A stretch of 8,668 nt of DNA, from the IMG/VR virus record IMGVR_UViG_2740892423_000019, one strand, 5' to 3'. Positions 2,312-8,668 of this stretch are shown here, piece by piece (positions within the stretch are counted from its first letter, which is position 1; each line of letters opens with the position of its first letter). The translations under genes were made by a program, and so were the position numbers. This DNA comes from a virus. Taxonomy: Duplodnaviria; Heunggongvirae; Uroviricota; Caudoviricetes. Under the pieces are notes generated by a model. That model saw only the letters and a program-made list of their open reading frames with translations. It did no database searches and had not been told where the DNA came from.

Positions 2312-2322
2312 GTGGGGTGAAT

Positions 2323-5300
2323 ATGGCAGTAAAGATTTCAGGTGTACTGAAAGACGGTGCAGGTAAACCGGTACAGAACTGCACAATCCAGCTGAAAGCA
2401 AAACGTAACAGCACCACGGTGGTGGTGAACACGGTGGCATCTGAAAATCCGGATGAAGCCGGGCGTTACAGCATGGATGTTGAGTACGGTCAGTACAGCG
2501 TTATTCTGTTGGTGGAAGGCTTCCCGCCATCGCATGCCGGGACCATCACCGTGTATGAAGACTCACAACCGGGTACGCTGAATGATTTTCTCGGTGCCAT
2601 GACGGAGGATGATGCCCGTCCGGAGGCACTGCGCCGCTTTGAACTGATGGTGGAAGAGGTGGCGCGTAACGCGTCCGCAGTGGCACAGAACACGGCAGCC
2701 GCGAAGAAGTCAGCCAGCGATGCCAGCACATCAGCCCGTGAGGCGGCAACCCATGCGACTGATGCTACAGGCTCAGCACGTGCAGCCAGCACATCAGCCG
2801 GGCAGGCCGCGACGTCGGCTCAGTCAGCGTCTTCCAGCGCAGGAACGGCATCAACAAAGGCTACTGAAGCATCAAAAAGTGCTGCCGCTGCAGAGTCCTC
2901 AAAAAGCGCGGCAGCCACCAGTGCCGGTGCGGCGAAAACGTCAGAAACGAATGCCGCAGCATCACAACAATCAGCAGCCACTTCTGCATCCACCGCGACC
3001 ACGAAAGCGTCAGAAGCTGCCACCTCAGCCCGGGATGCGGCGGCCTCAAAAGAGGCAGCGAAATCATCAGAAACGAACGCATCATCAAGTGCCAGTAGTG
3101 CAGCTTCCTCGGCAACGGCGGCAGGAAATTCCGCGAAGGCCGCAAAAACGTCTGAGACGAATGCGGATAACAGCGCACAGGCGGCAGCAGACTCACAAAC
3201 TGCATCGGCAAACTCCGCGACAGCAGCCAAAAAATCAGAAACCAACGCGAAAAATAGCGAGGCAGCAGCAAAGAGCAGCGAAACCAACGCTAAAGCCAGC
3301 GAAACTAATGCTAAATCCAGTGAAACAAACGCGGCGAAATCTGCGGCGGACGCACTTAATTATCGCAACCAGGCGCAAGTAATTGTTGGCGATAATATCG
3401 GTCTTGGTGAAGTTGCCATGACCTGCACTGATATCTCTGTTGAGCCATCAGGTTATATTGGATTTGTCAGGATTTACATCTCAGCGAAAGGTTATCCATC
3501 AGTAGCGTCTAGTGCCGGTGATAATCTTATTTCTGGTTATATAGTTAGATCAGAAGTGTCAACAAAAAGATATTCCGGTCTATTTGTTGGTTCAGATACA
3601 AAATCATTGTATTCGTACATTTACAGCCAAAGTTCTGGCCCGCAATGGATACGTCATACCCGCAGAGATGAATTAAGCCGCTTTGGTCAAAATGAATCAA
3701 CAACTCGTATGTATGGTCCAACTGGTGATCGTTTCTTTGAAATCCATACTAACGGGAGTTGGGGAGTTTATGATTCTTCTTCTGGACAATGGTCTCCGTT
3801 AGGTTTAGCCCAGGGCGGTACTGGTGGAAGAACTATCGAGCAAGCACGTGCGAACTTGCGGGTAATGTATGAGCAAAAAGCTGGCCTTGCTAATACTGAC
3901 CTAAACACCCTTACCGGTGAATATTCTGGTTTCTATCAACAACCAACGAGCGCTTACGCAACAGAAGAATTAAATTACCCAATCGGTCTGGCGGGCGCTT
4001 TAATAGTGCTCCAAACGAGAGCCAACACTGCTTCTTCCTGCGTTCAGGTGTACTACCCTTATAATAATCCGGGAATTACTTATAGACGAATATATGAAGG
4101 AGGAAGCGGTACCTGGTCTGAATGGAAGAGAGATGTATCAACAGAAAGGGTTGAAGAGGGAAAAGAAACAACTTACGTATATTCTACGTATTCTTCAGGC
4201 GCACCACGCTTACAGGTTTCCAAATCTGGTTTGTGGGGTTGTCATAATGGCACTGGCTGGTTGCCATTAGCTGTTGGGCAAGGAGGTACAGGTGCGACAA
4301 CAGTAGAAGATGCGCGAAACAACTTAAGTCTTGGCGAAAGTAGCGCAGTTAAATTTAAAAACCTTACTTTAACCGAAGCGCTCGACACGACATTAGGACT
4401 GCTTACAAAAACAGGACGAGACTGGAACACGCAGCATACTGATAACATTAATAAATTTATACCAATTGCAGGCAGTACAAACGGCCCGGCAGGTTCTATG
4501 GTTCTTGGCGGCATTCATGTTCAATTTAGTAAAAATTATGCTGTGCAGTTCGGAGGCCGCAATTCCGGTTTTTGGGGAAGAACAATTGAAAATGGAACGA
4601 CGCAGGAATGGAAGAAATTACTAACAGTAGACGATCTCAATTCATCTACCGATCTTGCTGTCAGGTCATTAACCACATCTAACCCGGTAAAATCTGGCGG
4701 AGGGCGAATTGATGTCCTTGGAAGCACGTCAGACTATAGCAAAATGGATTGCTTTGTACGTGGGTTTGATAGCACCGGTAATTCTCTCGCGTGGGCGTTG
4801 GGTTCATCAGTCGGCGTAAGTAAGATGCTGTCGCTAAAAAATTTCTTTAGCGGAGCTGAGATACTGTTAAATGGTAATGACGGCGCGGTTCAACTCAAAA
4901 CAGGTGCTGTTAACGGGGCTAAAGCACAGGCGCTCACTATCAACAAGGATGAGGTTAACTCAACTGTTGATTTAACTCTTACAAAACAAACAGGGACTGG
5001 AAATCGTTTTGTTTTACAGAACTTAGGTAATACAGAACTATCATTTGCCGCAAAAGTATGGGGATCAAGTGATCGACAAAACGTTTTTGAGGTTGGAACG
5101 TCTGCTGCGTATCTGTTTTATGCGCAAAAAACATCAGCAGGCCAGTTGTTTGATGTAAATGGCGCTATTAATTGCACAACGCTGAATCAGTCATCAGACC
5201 GCGACCTTAAAGACGATATTCGCGTTATCAGCGACGCTACGAAAGCAATCCGTAAAATGAACGGGTACACCTACACGCTCAAGGAAAACGGAATGCCTTA

Positions 5301-5628
5301 TGCTGGCGTTATTGCACAGGAAGTAATGGAGGCGATACCTGAAGCTGTGGGATCGTTTACTCATTATGGTGAAGAGTTGCAAGGTCCGACCGTTGACGGC
5401 AACGAGCTACGCGAAGAAACTCGCTATCTTAATGTTGACTACTCCGCCGTGACGGGGTTACTTGTTCAGGTCGCCCGTGAAACAGATGATCGCGTTACCG
5501 CGCTGGAAGAGGAAAATACAACGTTACGTGAAAATCTGGCAACAGCAGGCACCCGGATCACCACTCTGGAAAATCAGGTAAGCGAACTGGTTGCACTTGT
5601 CGGGCAGTTAACAGGAAGCGAACATTGA
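2323..5628 (+). CDS. stf: Side tail fibre protein, mosaic: lambda Stf-like N-terminus, Ala/Ser/Thr-rich shaft, divergent distal region, C-terminal self-cleaving chaperone domain
   Basis: Translation from ATG 2323 begins MAVKISGVLKDGAGKPVQNCTIQLKAKRNSTTVVVNT, which matches the lambda Stf N-terminus as recalled. The ORF track starts at the in-frame GTG 2317, which I regard as an artefact. A GGGG Shine-Dalgarno-like run sits at 2314-2317. The protein has a long low-complexity Ala/Ser/Thr shaft with repeated K(T/S)SETNA units, and two GGTG-x-ARxNL motifs (LGLAQGGTGGRTIEQARANLRV and LPLAVGQGGTGATTVEDARNNLSLG) typical of the phage tail fibre repeat. The gene ends at TGA 5626-5628. Confidence 0.88.
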   Translation: MAVKISGVLKDGAGKPVQNCTIQLKAKRNSTTVVVNTVASENPDEAGRYSMDVEYGQYSVILLVEGFPPSHAGTITVYEDSQPGTLNDFLGAMTEDDARPEALRRFELMVEEVARNASAVAQNTAAAKKSASDASTSAREAATHATDATGSARAASTSAGQAATSAQSASSSAGTASTKATEASKSAAAAESSKSAAATSAGAAKTSETNAAASQQSAATSASTATTKASEAATSARDAAASKEAAKSSETNASSSASSAASSATAAGNSAKAAKTSETNADNSAQAAADSQTASANSATAAKKSETNAKNSEAAAKSSETNAKASETNAKSSETNAAKSAADALNYRNQAQVIVGDNIGLGEVAMTCTDISVEPSGYIGFVRIYISAKGYPSVASSAGDNLISGYIVRSEVSTKRYSGLFVGSDTKSLYSYIYSQSSGPQWIRHTRRDELSRFGQNESTTRMYGPTGDRFFEIHTNGSWGVYDSSSGQWSPLGLAQGGTGGRTIEQARANLRVMYEQKAGLANTDLNTLTGEYSGFYQQPTSAYATEELNYPIGLAGALIVLQTRANTASSCVQVYYPYNNPGITYRRIYEGGSGTWSEWKRDVSTERVEEGKETTYVYSTYSSGAPRLQVSKSGLWGCHNGTGWLPLAVGQGGTGATTVEDARNNLSLGESSAVKFKNLTLTEALDTTLGLLTKTGRDWNTQHTDNINKFIPIAGSTNGPAGSMVLGGIHVQFSKNYAVQFGGRNSGFWGRTIENGTTQEWKKLLTVDDLNSSTDLAVRSLTTSNPVKSGGGRIDVLGSTSDYSKMDCFVRGFDSTGNSLAWALGSSVGVSKMLSLKNFFSGAEILLNGNDGAVQLKTGAVNGAKAQALTINKDEVNSTVDLTLTKQTGTGNRFVLQNLGNTELSFAAKVWGSSDRQNVFEVGTSAAYLFYAQKTSAGQLFDVNGAINCTTLNQSSDRDLKDDIRVISDATKAIRKMNGYTYTLKENGMPYAGVIAQEVMEAIPEAVGSFTHYGEELQGPTVDGNELREETRYLNVDYSAVTGLLVQVARETDDRVTALEEENTTLRENLATAGTRITTLENQVSELVALVGQLTGSEH
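5194..5625 (+). other. C-terminal self-cleaving chaperone domain of Stf (Peptidase S74 / endosialidase-chaperone-like)
   Basis: The motif SSDRDLKDDIRVI has the Ser-Asp-x-x-x-Lys signature of autoproteolytic tail-fibre chaperone domains (phage K1F endosialidase, T5 L-shaped fibre). It is followed by IRKMNGYTYTLKENG and a heptad-like tail, TALEEENTTLRENLATAGTRITTLENQVSELVALVGQL. Predicted cleavage is after the Ser encoded at 5194-5196. The assignment is by motif recall and was not searched. Confidence 0.65.
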
Positions 5629-5679
5629 TATCCTTCAAGCCCTGAAGGAGGCTGTTCCTGGTACGTTCAGACTGTTGTT

Positions 5680-5811
5680 GAGCTGGAAATCGCAACGGAG
5701 GAAGAAACCTTGTTGCTGGAAGTCTGGAAGAAGTATCGGGTGTTGCTGAACCGTGTTGATACATCAACTGCACCTGATATTGAGTGGCCTACGAACCCTG
5801 TCAGGGAGTAA
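5680..5811 (+). pseudogene. tfa: 3' remnant of tail fibre assembly gene tfa (last ~43 codons, no start codon)
   Basis: The segment translates to [43 protein letters not shown], which closely matches the lambda Tfa C-terminus (recalled as ...[37 protein letters not shown]...). It lies in the same frame as stf, directly after the stf TGA, with no ATG, GTG or TTG start and no N-terminal Tfa sequence. Confidence 0.7.
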
Positions 5812-5825
5812 TCATTGGGATTATG

Positions 5826-5858
5826 CCGCAGCACGTCTTAAGCAAGAGCGAGCTGCGG
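5826..5858. repeat. 33-nt palindromic element, copy A (hairpin between the convergent tfa remnant and methyltransferase 3' ends)
   Basis: The sequence is ccgcagcacgtcttaagcaagagcgagctgcgg. An imperfect stem (ccgcagc...gctgcgg) lies 8 nt downstream of the - strand methyltransferase stop codon (5866-5868). It is 33/37 identical, including the flanking ttgg, to copy B at 8526-8558. Confidence 0.5.
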
Positions 5859-5865
5859 TTGGATG

Positions 5866-6534
5866 CTATTTTTTCCCTGAAGCGGAAAACATTACTACAG
5901 TACCTTGAACCTTGGTTTTAACATTCTCGAAATGCTCTGAGAGTATATGTGTTAAGCCTTCTTCGGAATCTTTTGTGTTTGAAAAGATGCCTTTCTGATT
6001 GTAAATGCGCATCAGTTTTTGACCGAAGCTATTGTGCACAACTCCATCGCCAAGAATTGTGGCTCCGTATAGAGTTCCATCGTCAGTTAAGGCCTGCGCC
6101 GCATTGCGTATTACACAGCTTTTTGTAGATATATTTCCAGGCAGGCAGTGAAGAAGGTAAAACATGGAAATGGAATCAAATTGACCATGTAACGCCGCGG
6201 GATAAGGTTCAAAAACATCATGGCTAATTTTATGTTTAATTTTTGATTCCCCAGCCCTTGTAGATGCCGCGTTCAGGCTAGCTTCGTTCAAATCCATTAA
6301 AGATATCAGACTACTCTCAGGTACGTGAGTAAGGTAAAACCCAGTTCCAACACCAATATCCAGATGGTTGTTACCTAAATGTTCCAGAAAGTGTGGAAGA
6401 AGGTGTTCCTTTGTAGGACATCCCCATGCAAGCCGATTTGATACTCCCAAAACCCACCAGTCATAAAGCTTTAGGGTAAGTGGTGTGTAAATTTTAGCCC
6501 CATCATCTGTGTTTTTTTTCATTAATTTCACCAT
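5866..6534 (-). CDS. Class I (Rossmann-fold) SAM-dependent methyltransferase, substrate unknown
   Basis: The 222-aa ORF carries a canonical motif I, HLDIGVGTGFY (hh-D/E-h-G-x-G-x-G), and a downstream acidic motif-II-like LISLMDLNE. GC is around 40%, lower than the phage structural genes. The start is uncertain: ATG at 6534 (MVKLMKK) or ATG at 6522 (MKKNTDD, weak ggtga Shine-Dalgarno-like sequence 6 nt upstream). Confidence 0.72.
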   Translation of the reverse strand: MVKLMKKNTDDGAKIYTPLTLKLYDWWVLGVSNRLAWGCPTKEHLLPHFLEHLGNNHLDIGVGTGFYLTHVPESSLISLMDLNEASLNAASTRAGESKIKHKISHDVFEPYPAALHGQFDSISMFYLLHCLPGNISTKSCVIRNAAQALTDDGTLYGATILGDGVVHNSFGQKLMRIYNQKGIFSNTKDSEEGLTHILSEHFENVKTKVQGTVVMFSASGKK

Positions 6535-6590
6535 GTTATAGTTTTGTTTGTGAATTAAATCAATTATGGTGATGAATTACAAGGGGTTAA

Positions 6591-6860
6591 ATGCTGCCGC
6601 AGCATAGCGATATTGAAATAGCCTGGTATGCTTCGATACAGCAGGAGCCGAATGGCTGGAAGACCGTCACCACATAGTTCTACATCCAGGAATTCAGTGA
6701 GCATATTGCGCCACTTCAGGATGCTGTAGATCTGGAGATCGCAACGGAGGAAGAAAACTCGTTGCTGGAAGCCTGGAAGAAGTATCGGGTGTTGCTGAAC
6801 CGTGTTAATACAACAACTGCACCGGATATTGAATGGCCAACAGGACCCATTATCGAATAG
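6591..6860 (+). pseudogene. Small ORF with a Tfa C-terminal-like domain, interrupted by an in-frame amber codon (TAG 6675-6677)
   Basis: ATG 6591 is preceded by aagggg (Shine-Dalgarno-like). It encodes MLPQHSDIEIAWYASIQQEPNGWKTVTT, then TAG, then in the same frame [60 protein letters not shown]. The second part matches the lambda Tfa C-terminus ([20 protein letters not shown]...[22 protein letters not shown]). No start codon exists after the amber codon. It resembles the small Tfa-C-like proteins of E. coli cryptic prophages (ynaE/ydfK family), from memory and unverified. Confidence 0.5.
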
Positions 6861-6871
6861 TGCATTACGAA

Positions 6872-6904
6872 CTGCAGGATATTATATGGGATAATATTCT
6901 GCAG
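6872..6904. terminator. AT-rich inverted repeat between convergent genes (possible bidirectional terminator)
   Basis: Arms of 14 nt, ctgcaggatattat and ataatattctgcag, carry one mismatch and flank a 5-nt spacer (atggg). The + strand continues with tttatt. The repeat sits between the small ORF stop (6860) and the cyclase stop (6934). Confidence 0.3.
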
Positions 6905-6933
6905 TTTATTGGGGCTGTATTTTAAAAAGGTGT

Positions 6934-8265
6934 TTATTTTGAGTGAGTTATCACCTTGTTTTTTCCGGTTCTTTTGGCTTGATATAACGCTTTATCGGCA
7001 TTGACTAACATTTCAGATGGACTGAGATTATTCTCTTTTGAAGTAAAGCAACCAATACTGACAGTTATTTTCTCAGGTCCATGCGATAATAATTTTTCCG
7101 AGCATTGCTCTTCAATGTTTTTTCTGATTCGCTCTGCAATTGATAGCAAGAGCTTTTGAGTATTACCTTTAATGATAATACCGAACTCCTCACCGCCTAA
7201 GCGCCCTAATATATCCTCTTTCCTGATGGATTTTTTTATTATTCTGGTAACCATTACTATGACTTGATCACCCATATGATGCCCCCATTTGTCATTGATG
7301 CTTTTGAAATTGTCAATATCTAACATTATTACTGAGAAATCATGGTGTTTTGATATATTCTTCAATGAGTCAATAAAGTATCTTCTATTGTATGTATTCG
7401 TTAGTGGATCATGAATTGCCATATGATTAGCATGATTTAATTTCCTGAAAACATAATACATGAGTGTTGAAATGATATAAATCATTGATATCAATTCAAG
7501 AAATTTTGTCATGTACCATGCAGGATGGGATTTATCAATAAAATACAATAAAATTAGATTATTGCATACTGACACTATACTAATAAGTATTATACACAAC
7601 CATATTTTTGAGTAATTACGTATGCTGATGCATGAGCTGATAAGTAATACAAGCCAAAATACTGATATTATTTTGGTGTACACGATATTCCACGTCGACA
7701 AATGACGATTCAGCGAGTATTGTATAATATTAAGACTATATTTTATATTGTCACTGCTTAGATTTTTTGCTACAAACGGAGTAATAAAAAGAATTAATAT
7801 TGACAAAACAACAATTATTATGTTTCTTTTATCTTCTAAAACACTTTTATTTTTAACATTGGTGGAATAAACAGCCAGAAAGATTATAGATATAAAGCTG
7901 AACTGACGGAATAGATAATATATTGCGATATCATTTGATTTCTGATAGATTGTAGATAAATCGTTACCTAACGGAGATAAAGAAATAATAGCCACTTCTA
8001 ATAAATAATACGTGTTGCTCAAAAACGCGAATGAAAGAATTAAGAGATAACTTTGTCTCTGATTAGAAACATAGTAAAGCAATAGAAAAATAAAAATCAT
8101 CAGGTTTATGAAAAAAAGCCCAATAATGAAAACACTATAACTTATTTGTGTTGTTTGTGTTATGTATATTCCATTATTTTCATGCAGTAACAAAAATATA
8201 ATAGAGATGCATGAAAATAAAAAGATGAAGATTTTTATTTTTATAGGTACCTGCTTGATAATCAT
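6934..8265 (-). CDS. Membrane-anchored diguanylate cyclase: N-terminal polytopic membrane domain (MASE-like) plus C-terminal GGDEF domain with GGEEF active site and RxxD I-site
   Basis: The 443-aa ORF has ATG at 8265-8263 with aggtg 5 nt upstream on the - strand. The first ~270 residues are highly hydrophobic, with about 8 predicted transmembrane segments rich in I, L and F. The GGDEF domain motifs are all present: HDPLTNTYNRRYF, MLDIDNFKSINDKWGHHMGDQV, the I-site RKED (7213-7224), and RLGGEEFG with GGEEF at 7183-7197. GC is about 25-30% by hand count on sampled 60-nt lines. The architecture resembles E. coli YcdT/DgcT-type cyclases and possibly the prophage-associated DgcX reported in some pathogenic E. 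coli; both comparisons are from memory. Confidence 0.9.
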   Translation of the reverse strand: MIIKQVPIKIKIFIFLFSCISIIFLLLHENNGIYITQTTQISYSVFIIGLFFINLMIFIFLLLYYVSNQRQSYLLILSFAFLSNTYYLLEVAIISLSPLGNDLSTIYQKSNDIAIYYLFRQFSFISIIFLAVYSTNVKNKSVLEDKRNIIIVVLSILILFITPFVAKNLSSDNIKYSLNIIQYSLNRHLSTWNIVYTKIISVFWLVLLISSCISIRNYSKIWLCIILISIVSVCNNLILLYFIDKSHPAWYMTKFLELISMIYIISTLMYYVFRKLNHANHMAIHDPLTNTYNRRYFIDSLKNISKHHDFSVIMLDIDNFKSINDKWGHHMGDQVIVMVTRIIKKSIRKEDILGRLGGEEFGIIIKGNTQKLLLSIAERIRKNIEEQCSEKLLSHGPEKITVSIGCFTSKENNLSPSEMLVNADKALYQAKRTGKNKVITHSK

Positions 8266-8366: not shown

Positions 8367-8525
8367 ATTGATGATTTTGGTTAGTATTGCAATAGCGAAG
8401 AGTTTGATCCGGTAAGACTGGCTAGGCAAGGCTATACCAAAAAATCAGTGTAGGTTCAGAAAACGATGCACCATACAATCATCAATAATTTCAAATTGTC
8501 CATTGTGCATAAATCATAAAGAAAA

Positions 8526-8558
8526 CCGCAGCACGTCGTATGCAAGAACGTGCTGCGG
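8526..8558 (-). terminator. 33-nt palindromic element, copy B; on the - strand a hairpin followed by a T-rich tract (terminator candidate for a gene entering from the right edge)
   Basis: The sequence is ccgcagcacgtcgtatgcaagaacgtgctgcgg, with a perfect 11-bp stem (ccgcagcacgt / acgtgctgcgg) and an 11-nt loop. On the - strand the stem is followed by ttttctttatg. Reverse-strand frames at 8587-8668 remain open to the window edge, consistent with the 3' end of a - strand gene. Confidence 0.4.
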
Positions 8559-8668
8559 TTGGCTGGTGAACTTTCTGGATTTGCCCCTATATTTCCAGAC
8601 ATCTGTTATCACTTAACCCATTACAAGCCCGCTGCCGCAGATATTCCCGTGGCGAGCGATAACCCAGC

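Follow-up and report, generated by a model that had tools for sequence, protein, structure and literature searches.

The concept of the moron and of the mosaic joint in lambdoid phages is reportedly that of Hendrix and Juhala, and Haggard-Ljungquist and Sandmeier are said to have described how P2, Mu, P1 and lambda exchange tail-fibre and tail-fibre-assembly (tfa) segments horizontally. In E. coli K-12, the cryptic prophage DLP12 holds a module, located between nohD and appY, in which the tfa gene tfaD (ybcX), the methyltransferase gene ybcY and the short ORF tfaX follow one another. The K-12 spacer between ybcY and tfaX is listed in a SELEX table as a divergent promoter region bound by RpoD holoenzyme and by H-NS (PMC3946193). 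The diguanylate cyclase gene dgcX adjoins lambdoid prophages at attB and at uspF-ompN (PMC4287979).

The window analysed here, the whole stretch of viral DNA at its full length of 8,668 nt, is the right end of a lambdoid prophage. Its genes run in the order J C-terminus, lom, S74 side tail fibre, tfa stub (copy A), methyltransferase, tfaX-like ORF and MASE4-GGDEF cyclase. Within it lie two direct copies of a short repeat, which are probably two relic tfa 3' ends marking the joints of a three-part mosaic. The features on which the argument depends are the following.

2317-5628, plus strand: side tail fibre gene (stf), an ORF with Pfam matches to PF08400 (E 3e-72) and PF13884 (E 1.7e-13)
5629-5665, plus strand: 37-nt spacer derived from the S74 module, separating the stf TGA (5626-5628) from the tfa-homologous sequence
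5666-5811, plus strand: repeat copy A, a tfa 3' stub of the 'alpha' type holding the last ~45 codons, from repeat search, alignment and the Caudo_TAP match
5825-5859, no strand: hairpin between the convergent tfa stub and methyltransferase (fold -23.3 kcal/mol, z -2.0)
5866-6534, minus strand: class I SAM-dependent methyltransferase of the ybcY family, 222 aa (Pfam Methyltransf_12/23/25/11; phrog_2132)
6563-6590, minus strand: sigma-70-like promoter candidate for the methyltransferase, TTAACC-16-CATAAT, from a consensus scan
6591-6860, plus strand: tfaX-like ORF of 89 codons, from translation, with an internal TAG at 6675-6677 (codon 29)
6715-6860, plus strand: repeat copy B, a tfa 3' end of the dgcX-linked 'beta' type, from segment identities, diagnostic sites and alignment
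6861-6933, no strand: 73-nt spacer, always found after a beta-type tfa end and before dgcX
6934-8265, minus strand: diguanylate cyclase with MASE4 and GGDEF domains (Pfam), 443 aa, consistent with DgcX

A repeat search of the window pairs 5666-5792 with 6715-6841 as a direct repeat of 127 nt that is 89% identical, ungapped and offset by 1049. A chance origin is excluded because the best ungapped 127-nt self-match scores 113 in the window and 57-62 in five shuffles, that is, 113/127 against at most 62/127. A sequence-only reading of this DNA had aligned the copies by hand at ~84% identity overall and ~92% over ~108 nt, around a 33-nt identical core. Recounting bears these values out, with 111/132 (84.1%) for 5680-5811 against 6729-6860, 99/108 (91.7%) for 5683-5790 against its partner, and the same core, TGGAAGAAGTATCGGGTGTTGCTGAACCGTGTT, which occurs exactly twice in the window, at 5725 and 6774. 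The first range of that reading stands, whereas the second (6733-6860) is 4 nt out of register, the partner of 5680 being 6729. MAFFT aligns the two copies without placing any gap within the repeat. The profile matches identify each copy as the 3' end of a tfa gene: copy A matches Pfam PF02413 (Caudo_TAP) at E 2.5e-19 over profile positions 87-130 of 131, and the copy B ORF matches at E 4.3e-24 over positions 75-130. Both exceed the gathering score of PF02413, yet they cover only the C-terminal third of the profile. Neither copy is a full-length intact tfa capable of serving as a fibre chaperone; copy A is without a start and ~150 codons, and the copy B ORF is without the N-terminal two thirds of Tfa and has the internal TAG.

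The left part of the window explains how copy A came to be a stub. The stf product joins a prophage tail-fibre N-terminal domain to a C-terminal Peptidase_S74 domain (Pfam, aa 960-1011, ~nt 5194-5349), and its RefSeq equivalent is named 'prophage tail fiber N-terminal domain and S74 family endopeptidase-containing protein'. Domains of the S74 type act as intramolecular chaperones, and an S74 fibre would presumably have no need of Tfa. Among the loci compared, the segment 5560-5665 occurs only in those with an S74 fibre (L007-L010, L012 and L013 in our numbering of comparison loci; 96-100% identity) and never beside a full-length tfa. Further right, 5758-5865 shares 97-98% identity with a full-length tfa end and its downstream sequence in K-12 DLP12 and in phages PhiR26_1 and 2G7b, where the full-length gene precedes the same methyltransferase; in other loci too, the alpha-type end is methyltransferase-linked. 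Copy A, labelled in RefSeq 'tail fiber assembly protein, incomplete, missing N-terminus', is thus a stub through fibre-gene replacement and not through capture, since only the tfa end was left when an S74-carrying module replaced the fibre tip. The stub is in frame with stf, and readthrough of the stf stop into it was considered and set aside, a shared frame having one chance in three.

As the sequence-only reading had it, the methyltransferase ORF is on the strand opposite to the two copies and between them. It matches phrog_2132 at E 7.9e-157 in an alignment that begins at residue 5. Sequence matches in the PDB are weak, to small-molecule O-methyltransferases at E~1e-3, and the protein has no match in NCBIfam; we therefore assign it no function. 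The gene is phage cargo, a moron. It is absent between the same neighbours in relatives, tfa being followed directly by dgcX in L004, L005 and 319 genomes that have a full tfa and then dgcX at the same attB-lambda locus; in lambda, ea47 comes after tfa. Its base composition is unlike that of the flanking phage genes, with a GC content of 0.40-0.45 across 5900-6500 versus 0.49-0.51 for 5300-5800 on the fibre side. As for signals of its own, there are one -35/-10 candidate and the hairpin. The consensus scan of the window found promoter sites no more numerous than in shuffles, and a simple terminator scan called no terminator, the hairpin at 5825-5859 included. The ybcY motif TTGATT-17-TATAAC of Shimada et al. 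is also present by eye, immediately upstream of the ATG, and the methyltransferase may be driven by the predicted promoter at 6563-6590. The hairpin, which is followed on the plus strand by CTATTTTTT, moves with the alpha tfa end and is conserved together with the module in L002, L006, L013 and L014; it may serve as a terminator.

From its sequence and position we take the ORF at 6591-6860 to be the counterpart of K-12 tfaX, which the BW2952 record labels only as a partial tail fiber assembly protein. A functional TfaX, that is, a small Tfa-like protein acting for example as a minimal chaperone or a regulator, would turn the repeat into two genes under selection. The ORF does match phrog_2341, an 88-residue family, from end to end (E 2.3e-57 over 1-87 of 88), intact versions of 82-108 aa are common, in hundreds of sequences, and the N-terminal 60 residues are well conserved. 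We nevertheless regard this explanation as unlikely. The eight loci read hold four different lesions, namely TAG (the window, L001 and L012), TGA (K-12) and two different frameshifts (Sanji and phage 2G7b), and the canonical C-terminus is lost in two more, PhiR26_1 and O157, where the tfaX 3' end has been replaced. The C-terminal tails are interchangeable, with at least five tfa-type tails in tfaX proteins elsewhere (...PTGPIIE, ...PEEPDTM, ...PANPVRE, ...PAVPVME and ...WLIQP), and the first ~30 residues gave no Tfa profile match in the Pfam search. Varied lesions and interchangeable tails fit a relic recombining time and again with other tfa ends, and the ORF of the window appears to be such a relic or pseudogene, which disfavours a functional TfaX. 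A DinI-family gene antisense to the 5' part of tfaX, annotated in RefSeq as truncated in strain Sanji, was also considered for the window and dropped, the Pfam search being empty for its 46-aa ORF.

Copy B itself is, by its segment identities, a chimera of a tfaX-type 5' part and a beta-type tfa 3' part. From 6535 to 6765 the window shows ~96% identity to tfaX contexts (95.7% to L002), and from 6766 to 6933 it is 99.4% identical to a tfa end plus the 73-nt spacer of L005 and L003. According to diagnostic sites, the change from tfaX type to beta type lies between 6694 and 6758. A full-length tfa with the beta end directly precedes dgcX in prophages that have no methyltransferase, and the 73-nt spacer is identical in L003-L005 and L007-L010, across three chromosomal sites. 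The cyclase beyond it is prophage cargo with a GC content of 0.25-0.30. It is consistent with the published DgcX in its architecture (MASE4 plus GGDEF) and locus description (beside a lambdoid prophage at attB-lambda). In the closest complete genome, MB53 (100% identity over 5400-7100), the lambda att core and then ybhB-bioA come after the cyclase, which puts the whole region inside a prophage at attB-lambda.

The sequence-only reading had proposed that the methyltransferase was captured between two tfa-like ends in this prophage. For such a local capture, a prophage would once have had two tandem tfa 3' ends and the gene would have been inserted between them here; the methyltransferase does sit exactly between the copies, its GC content is lower, and same-locus prophages without it exist. 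The distribution of the module speaks against this course of events, which we consider very unlikely. The methyltransferase and its upstream spacer are present in 3832 of 5426 complete E. coli genomes (71%), at 4877 places and up to four per genome, and K-12 derivatives match the methyltransferase region at 98.9% identity. In thousands of genomes the matches to the module run from window positions 5666-5683 to 6838-6848, with both limits at the edges of the repeats, and the methyltransferase with tfa ends on both sides is found among matches sampled throughout the ranking of these genomes. The flanks of the module vary (appY-ompT, potB, dgcX, IS66), and it occurs in Sanji and in 49 phage records, PhiR26_1 and 2G7b among them. 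The complete unit of alpha end, hairpin, methyltransferase and tfaX 5' part is 96-98% identical in the unrelated contexts of K-12, phages and Sanji, the 3' half of copy B belongs to the dgcX arm and not to the module, and two adjacent tfa ends without cargo were found in no locus examined. A module already present in phages and K-12 thus takes the place of the proposed capture. In O157:H7, a catalase/ferritin cluster lies between tfa and the hairpin-methyltransferase-tfaX unit, so that this position accumulates cargo.

We then asked what is found where the methyltransferase is missing. A synthetic A/B deletion product, made by joining window positions 5458-5757 to 6807-7106 (600 nt), was matched to complete genomes. 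It gives a single uninterrupted match of 599-600 nt in nine of them, at 95.8-98.2% identity. These nine genomes carry the S74 fibre end, a single tfa stub and then dgcX, without the methyltransferase, at a minimum of three chromosomal sites. In about 189 genomes the same two flanks enclose the methyltransferase, so that the presence/absence polymorphism foreseen by the sequence-only reading is real, as are the variants it expected with a single hybrid tfa end. In L007, at attB-lambda, the stub is of A type at 5651-5711, 5758 and 5764 and of B type from 5775 onward, the one exception being site 5723, which is polymorphic among alpha-type copies. More than one A/B switch is needed for the stub of L008, and the stubs of L009 and L010 have a third SNP type. 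From their identity of 95.8-98.2%, their several sites and the SNP patterns of L008-L010, the nine genomes are not simple recent derivatives of the window. L003 (MRSN346647), at first sight a deletion product, was rejected as one: another fibre module precedes its stub, which begins ~20 nt further in and is of beta type throughout, so that by these joints it is an independent truncation and not an A x B product.

A clearer and independent case comes from the K-12 context, where the repeats share 41 nt of identity and a synthetic tfaD/tfaX product has a one-piece match in nine genomes. L016, which has the DLP12 context, carries a full-length tfa that is of tfaD type in its 5' part and of tfaX type in its 3' part, with the switch inside the 41-nt identical stretch. 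Annotated 'internal stop' and followed by appY, this tfa bears the TGG>TGA nonsense change that is found elsewhere in K-12 tfaX. Alleles lacking the K-12 TGA have the same dinI-like::tfa joint, by which tfaX is defined, and the TGA therefore arose in the tfaX relic; L016 gained it by recombination onto the relic, losing the methyltransferase. What deletion between direct repeats should leave in nature, a single hybrid repeat in otherwise unaltered flanks, is found in the nine one-piece matches, L007 with its A-then-B order among them, and in L016. The minimal identity for homologous recombination in E. coli is ~23-27 bp, a processing segment that the 33-nt core exceeds; a divergence of 11% should strongly reduce RecA-dependent exchange. 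The deletion by recombination between the repeats that had been predicted is thus upheld as far as the hybrid ends go. In the context of the window, the nine genomes, a heterogeneous set, may have arisen either by intramolecular deletion or by a phage x prophage crossover at the same homology.

Site-specific switches are known in the tail-fibre regions of Mu, P1 and e14, but a dedicated mobile or switching system at this locus (an invertible segment of the Gin/Cin/Pin kind, a transposon with target duplication or an integron-like cassette) is scarcely credible, given that the repeats are direct and not inverted, that no invertase, integrase or transposase lies in or beside 5629-6933, that 127 nt at 89% identity does not fit a target-site duplication, that crossover points vary between hybrids as they do in homologous exchange, and that a search of the window for a gix/pix-like core gave one match with one mismatch against 0.34 expected, equalled in 60/200 shuffles.

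The best explanation is a passive mechanism, in which conserved tfa 3' ends provide homology, and crossovers there delete cargo or give it new flanks. First, a side tail fibre carrying its own S74 chaperone would have displaced the usual fibre tip together with most of tfa, leaving stub A. Stub A, the hairpin, the ybcY-family methyltransferase with its promoter region and the tfaX 5' part would represent a pre-assembled cargo module that circulates among E. coli lambdoid phages. Homologous recombination in tfa 3' sequence, perhaps by RecA or a phage recombinase, would finally have joined tfaX to a resident full-length tfa end bearing dgcX and so produced copy B; the events probably took place in this order. 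The ~130-nt sequence, common to every tfa of the family, would act as portable homology, and crossovers in it would swap the cargo to the right of the fibre genes. A crossover between the direct copies A and B would lose the methyltransferase and leave one hybrid end.

A stronger proposal is that the tfa 3' end and the tfaX relic are maintained as a 'cargo slot', a portable homology pair for loading, swapping and dropping accessory genes; we think it quite unlikely. If it were true, tfaX would be kept or repeatedly regenerated as the second homology arm, under DNA-level selection for exchangeability, and the methyltransferase, dgcX, the catalase/ferritin cluster and the appY-ompT side would be its cargo at the end of the late operon. 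On the passive reading that we prefer, a short conserved tfa coding end joins and removes unrelated accessory genes at the tail-fibre end of lambdoid prophages. Among the genes reshuffled in this way are the methyltransferase, found in 71% of complete genomes, and dgcX, a biofilm-related cyclase gene; the presence or absence of either should not be taken as a stable lineage marker. As breakpoints, the tfa 'pseudogenes' help to reconstruct the history of prophages. Our current understanding of phage mosaicism is unchanged by the finding.

The closest known system is tfaD (ybcX)-ybcY-tfaX in the cryptic prophage DLP12 of K-12, which has a tfa 3' end, a hairpin, an opposite-strand methyltransferase and a short tfaX ORF in the same order and orientation. 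Its pieces are 96-98% identical to the window (97.2% for 5758-5865 against L002), and tfaX is a pseudogene there too. The methyltransferase is frameshifted in DLP12 and intact in the window. The left tfa remnant of DLP12 has 438 nt and is fused to a terminase fragment, whereas the window has a 146-nt stub behind an S74 fibre; K-12 tfaX carries TGA in place of TAG and keeps its own 3' end, followed by appY-ompT, whereas the right copy of the window ends in dgcX-linked sequence. The tfa-methyltransferase-tfaX arrangement is thus the K-12 module, already known, with a new flank, and it exemplifies ordinary lambdoid mosaicism. With the dgcX of Richter et al. 2014, the window shares a MASE4-GGDEF cyclase directly beside lambdoid prophage DNA at attB-lambda, the gene being found also at uspF-ompN, and that paper proposes hitch-hiking via specialised transduction (PMC4287979). 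Here, in contrast, the cyclase lies within the prophage, between tfa and the att core, and the tfa-dgcX spacer of 73 nt is invariant at different sites; dgcX is better regarded as cargo inside the prophage than as chromosomal DNA beside it.

Two further likenesses concern mechanism. As in the fibre exchange among P2, Mu, P1 and lambda, crossing over takes place in conserved segments of fibre and tfa genes; there it reassorts fibre modules, whereas here non-structural cargo (the methyltransferase, dgcX and the appY side) is reassorted, with no invertible segment. The morons of lambdoid phages resemble the methyltransferase in being extra opposite-strand genes with a promoter region of their own (predicted here) and a lower GC content, set between neighbours that are adjacent in relatives, and the cargo of the window is likewise bounded by sequence shared between phages. 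Many joints of such phages are without homology, whereas the boundaries here are relics of coding sequence, ~130 nt long, that give usable homology.

The diguanylate cyclase-type gene dgcX (MASE4-GGDEF; 6934-8265, minus strand) is located within the prophage, both in the window (6861-8265) and at four of the compared loci (L001, at 12509, L003, L009 and L010). The lambda att core, GCTTTTTTATACTAA, lies ∼640 nt past the gene, and tfa (tail-fibre assembly) and dgcX are separated by an identical 73-nt spacer not only at attB-lambda but also at uspF/Rac and further sites. Taken with a GC content of 0.25-0.30, these observations point to dgcX being prophage cargo, rather than flanking DNA acquired through specialised transduction as was suggested previously (PMC4287979).

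Two repeat features accompany the genes of this right end:

5826-5865 and 8526-8565: second direct repeat, 40 nt, 88% identical, a GC-rich hairpin
2698-3255: imperfect repeat families D1 and D3, 33-41 nt, within the Ala/Ser/Thr-rich region of the side tail fibre gene stf (2317-5628, plus strand)

Read on the minus strand, the hairpin at 8526-8555 is predicted from its sequence to be a canonical intrinsic terminator (z -5.0), in which UUUUCUUU comes after a 14-bp stem. This hairpin and ∼60 nt of downstream sequence match the lambda b-region at 24162-24265 with 89% identity. The copy at 5825-5859 accompanies the methyltransferase-linked tfa end. Immediately past the hairpin, at 8577-8668, the window diverges from MB53, the closest complete genome, and likewise from all complete E. 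coli genomes searched. None of these genomes contains the whole of 8380-8668, and matches specific to the window end at 8575; the query overall has 22,986 matching places, up to 42 per genome, plasmids included. We infer that the last ∼92 nt are a putative insertion sequence end and the source of these matches. Presumably this end is similar to that of IS2.

The stf gene has 1103 codons in the window versus 1204 in MB53, and its repeat region is therefore length-polymorphic. It shares one reading frame with the tfa stub, the two being separated only by a TGA stop and 12 codons (stop to stub end, 5626-5811). This in-frame junction is common to all loci examined in which a fibre with an S74 chaperone domain precedes a tfa stub, and the shared frame is probably a coincidence. 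For the ybcY-family methyltransferase (5866-6534, minus strand), the PHROG profile alignment begins at residue 5 (window 6520-6534) and a GGTGA lies 6 nt upstream of the second ATG, which encodes that residue, so the true start may be M5 (218 aa) and not the annotated 222-aa start. Antisense to the 5′ part of the tfaX-like ORF (6609-6704, minus strand), RefSeq labels a truncated hypothetical protein, which in strain Sanji is assigned to the DinI family; the 46-aa ORF there has no match in Pfam. If the DinI-family label is true, tfaX would have originated as a dinI′::′tfa deletion joint.

The slot between tfa and the hairpin-methyltransferase-tfaX unit takes additional cargo. In O157:H7 F7349 (L015, 1331-3544), a minus-strand cluster encoding a manganese catalase, a general stress protein and a pair of ferritin-like proteins separates a full-length tfa from this unit.

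Many window-type genomes, EAEC 042 (L012) and L010 among them, carry a heavily deleted prophage. In EAEC 042 (L012, 2116-3329), a DNA-packaging gene runs directly into the final ∼700 nt of the S74 fibre gene. The right-end cargo block thus persists longer than the remainder of the prophage. The fusion of packaging gene to S74 fibre is analogous to the terminase::tfa joint in DLP12, the cryptic prophage of K-12.
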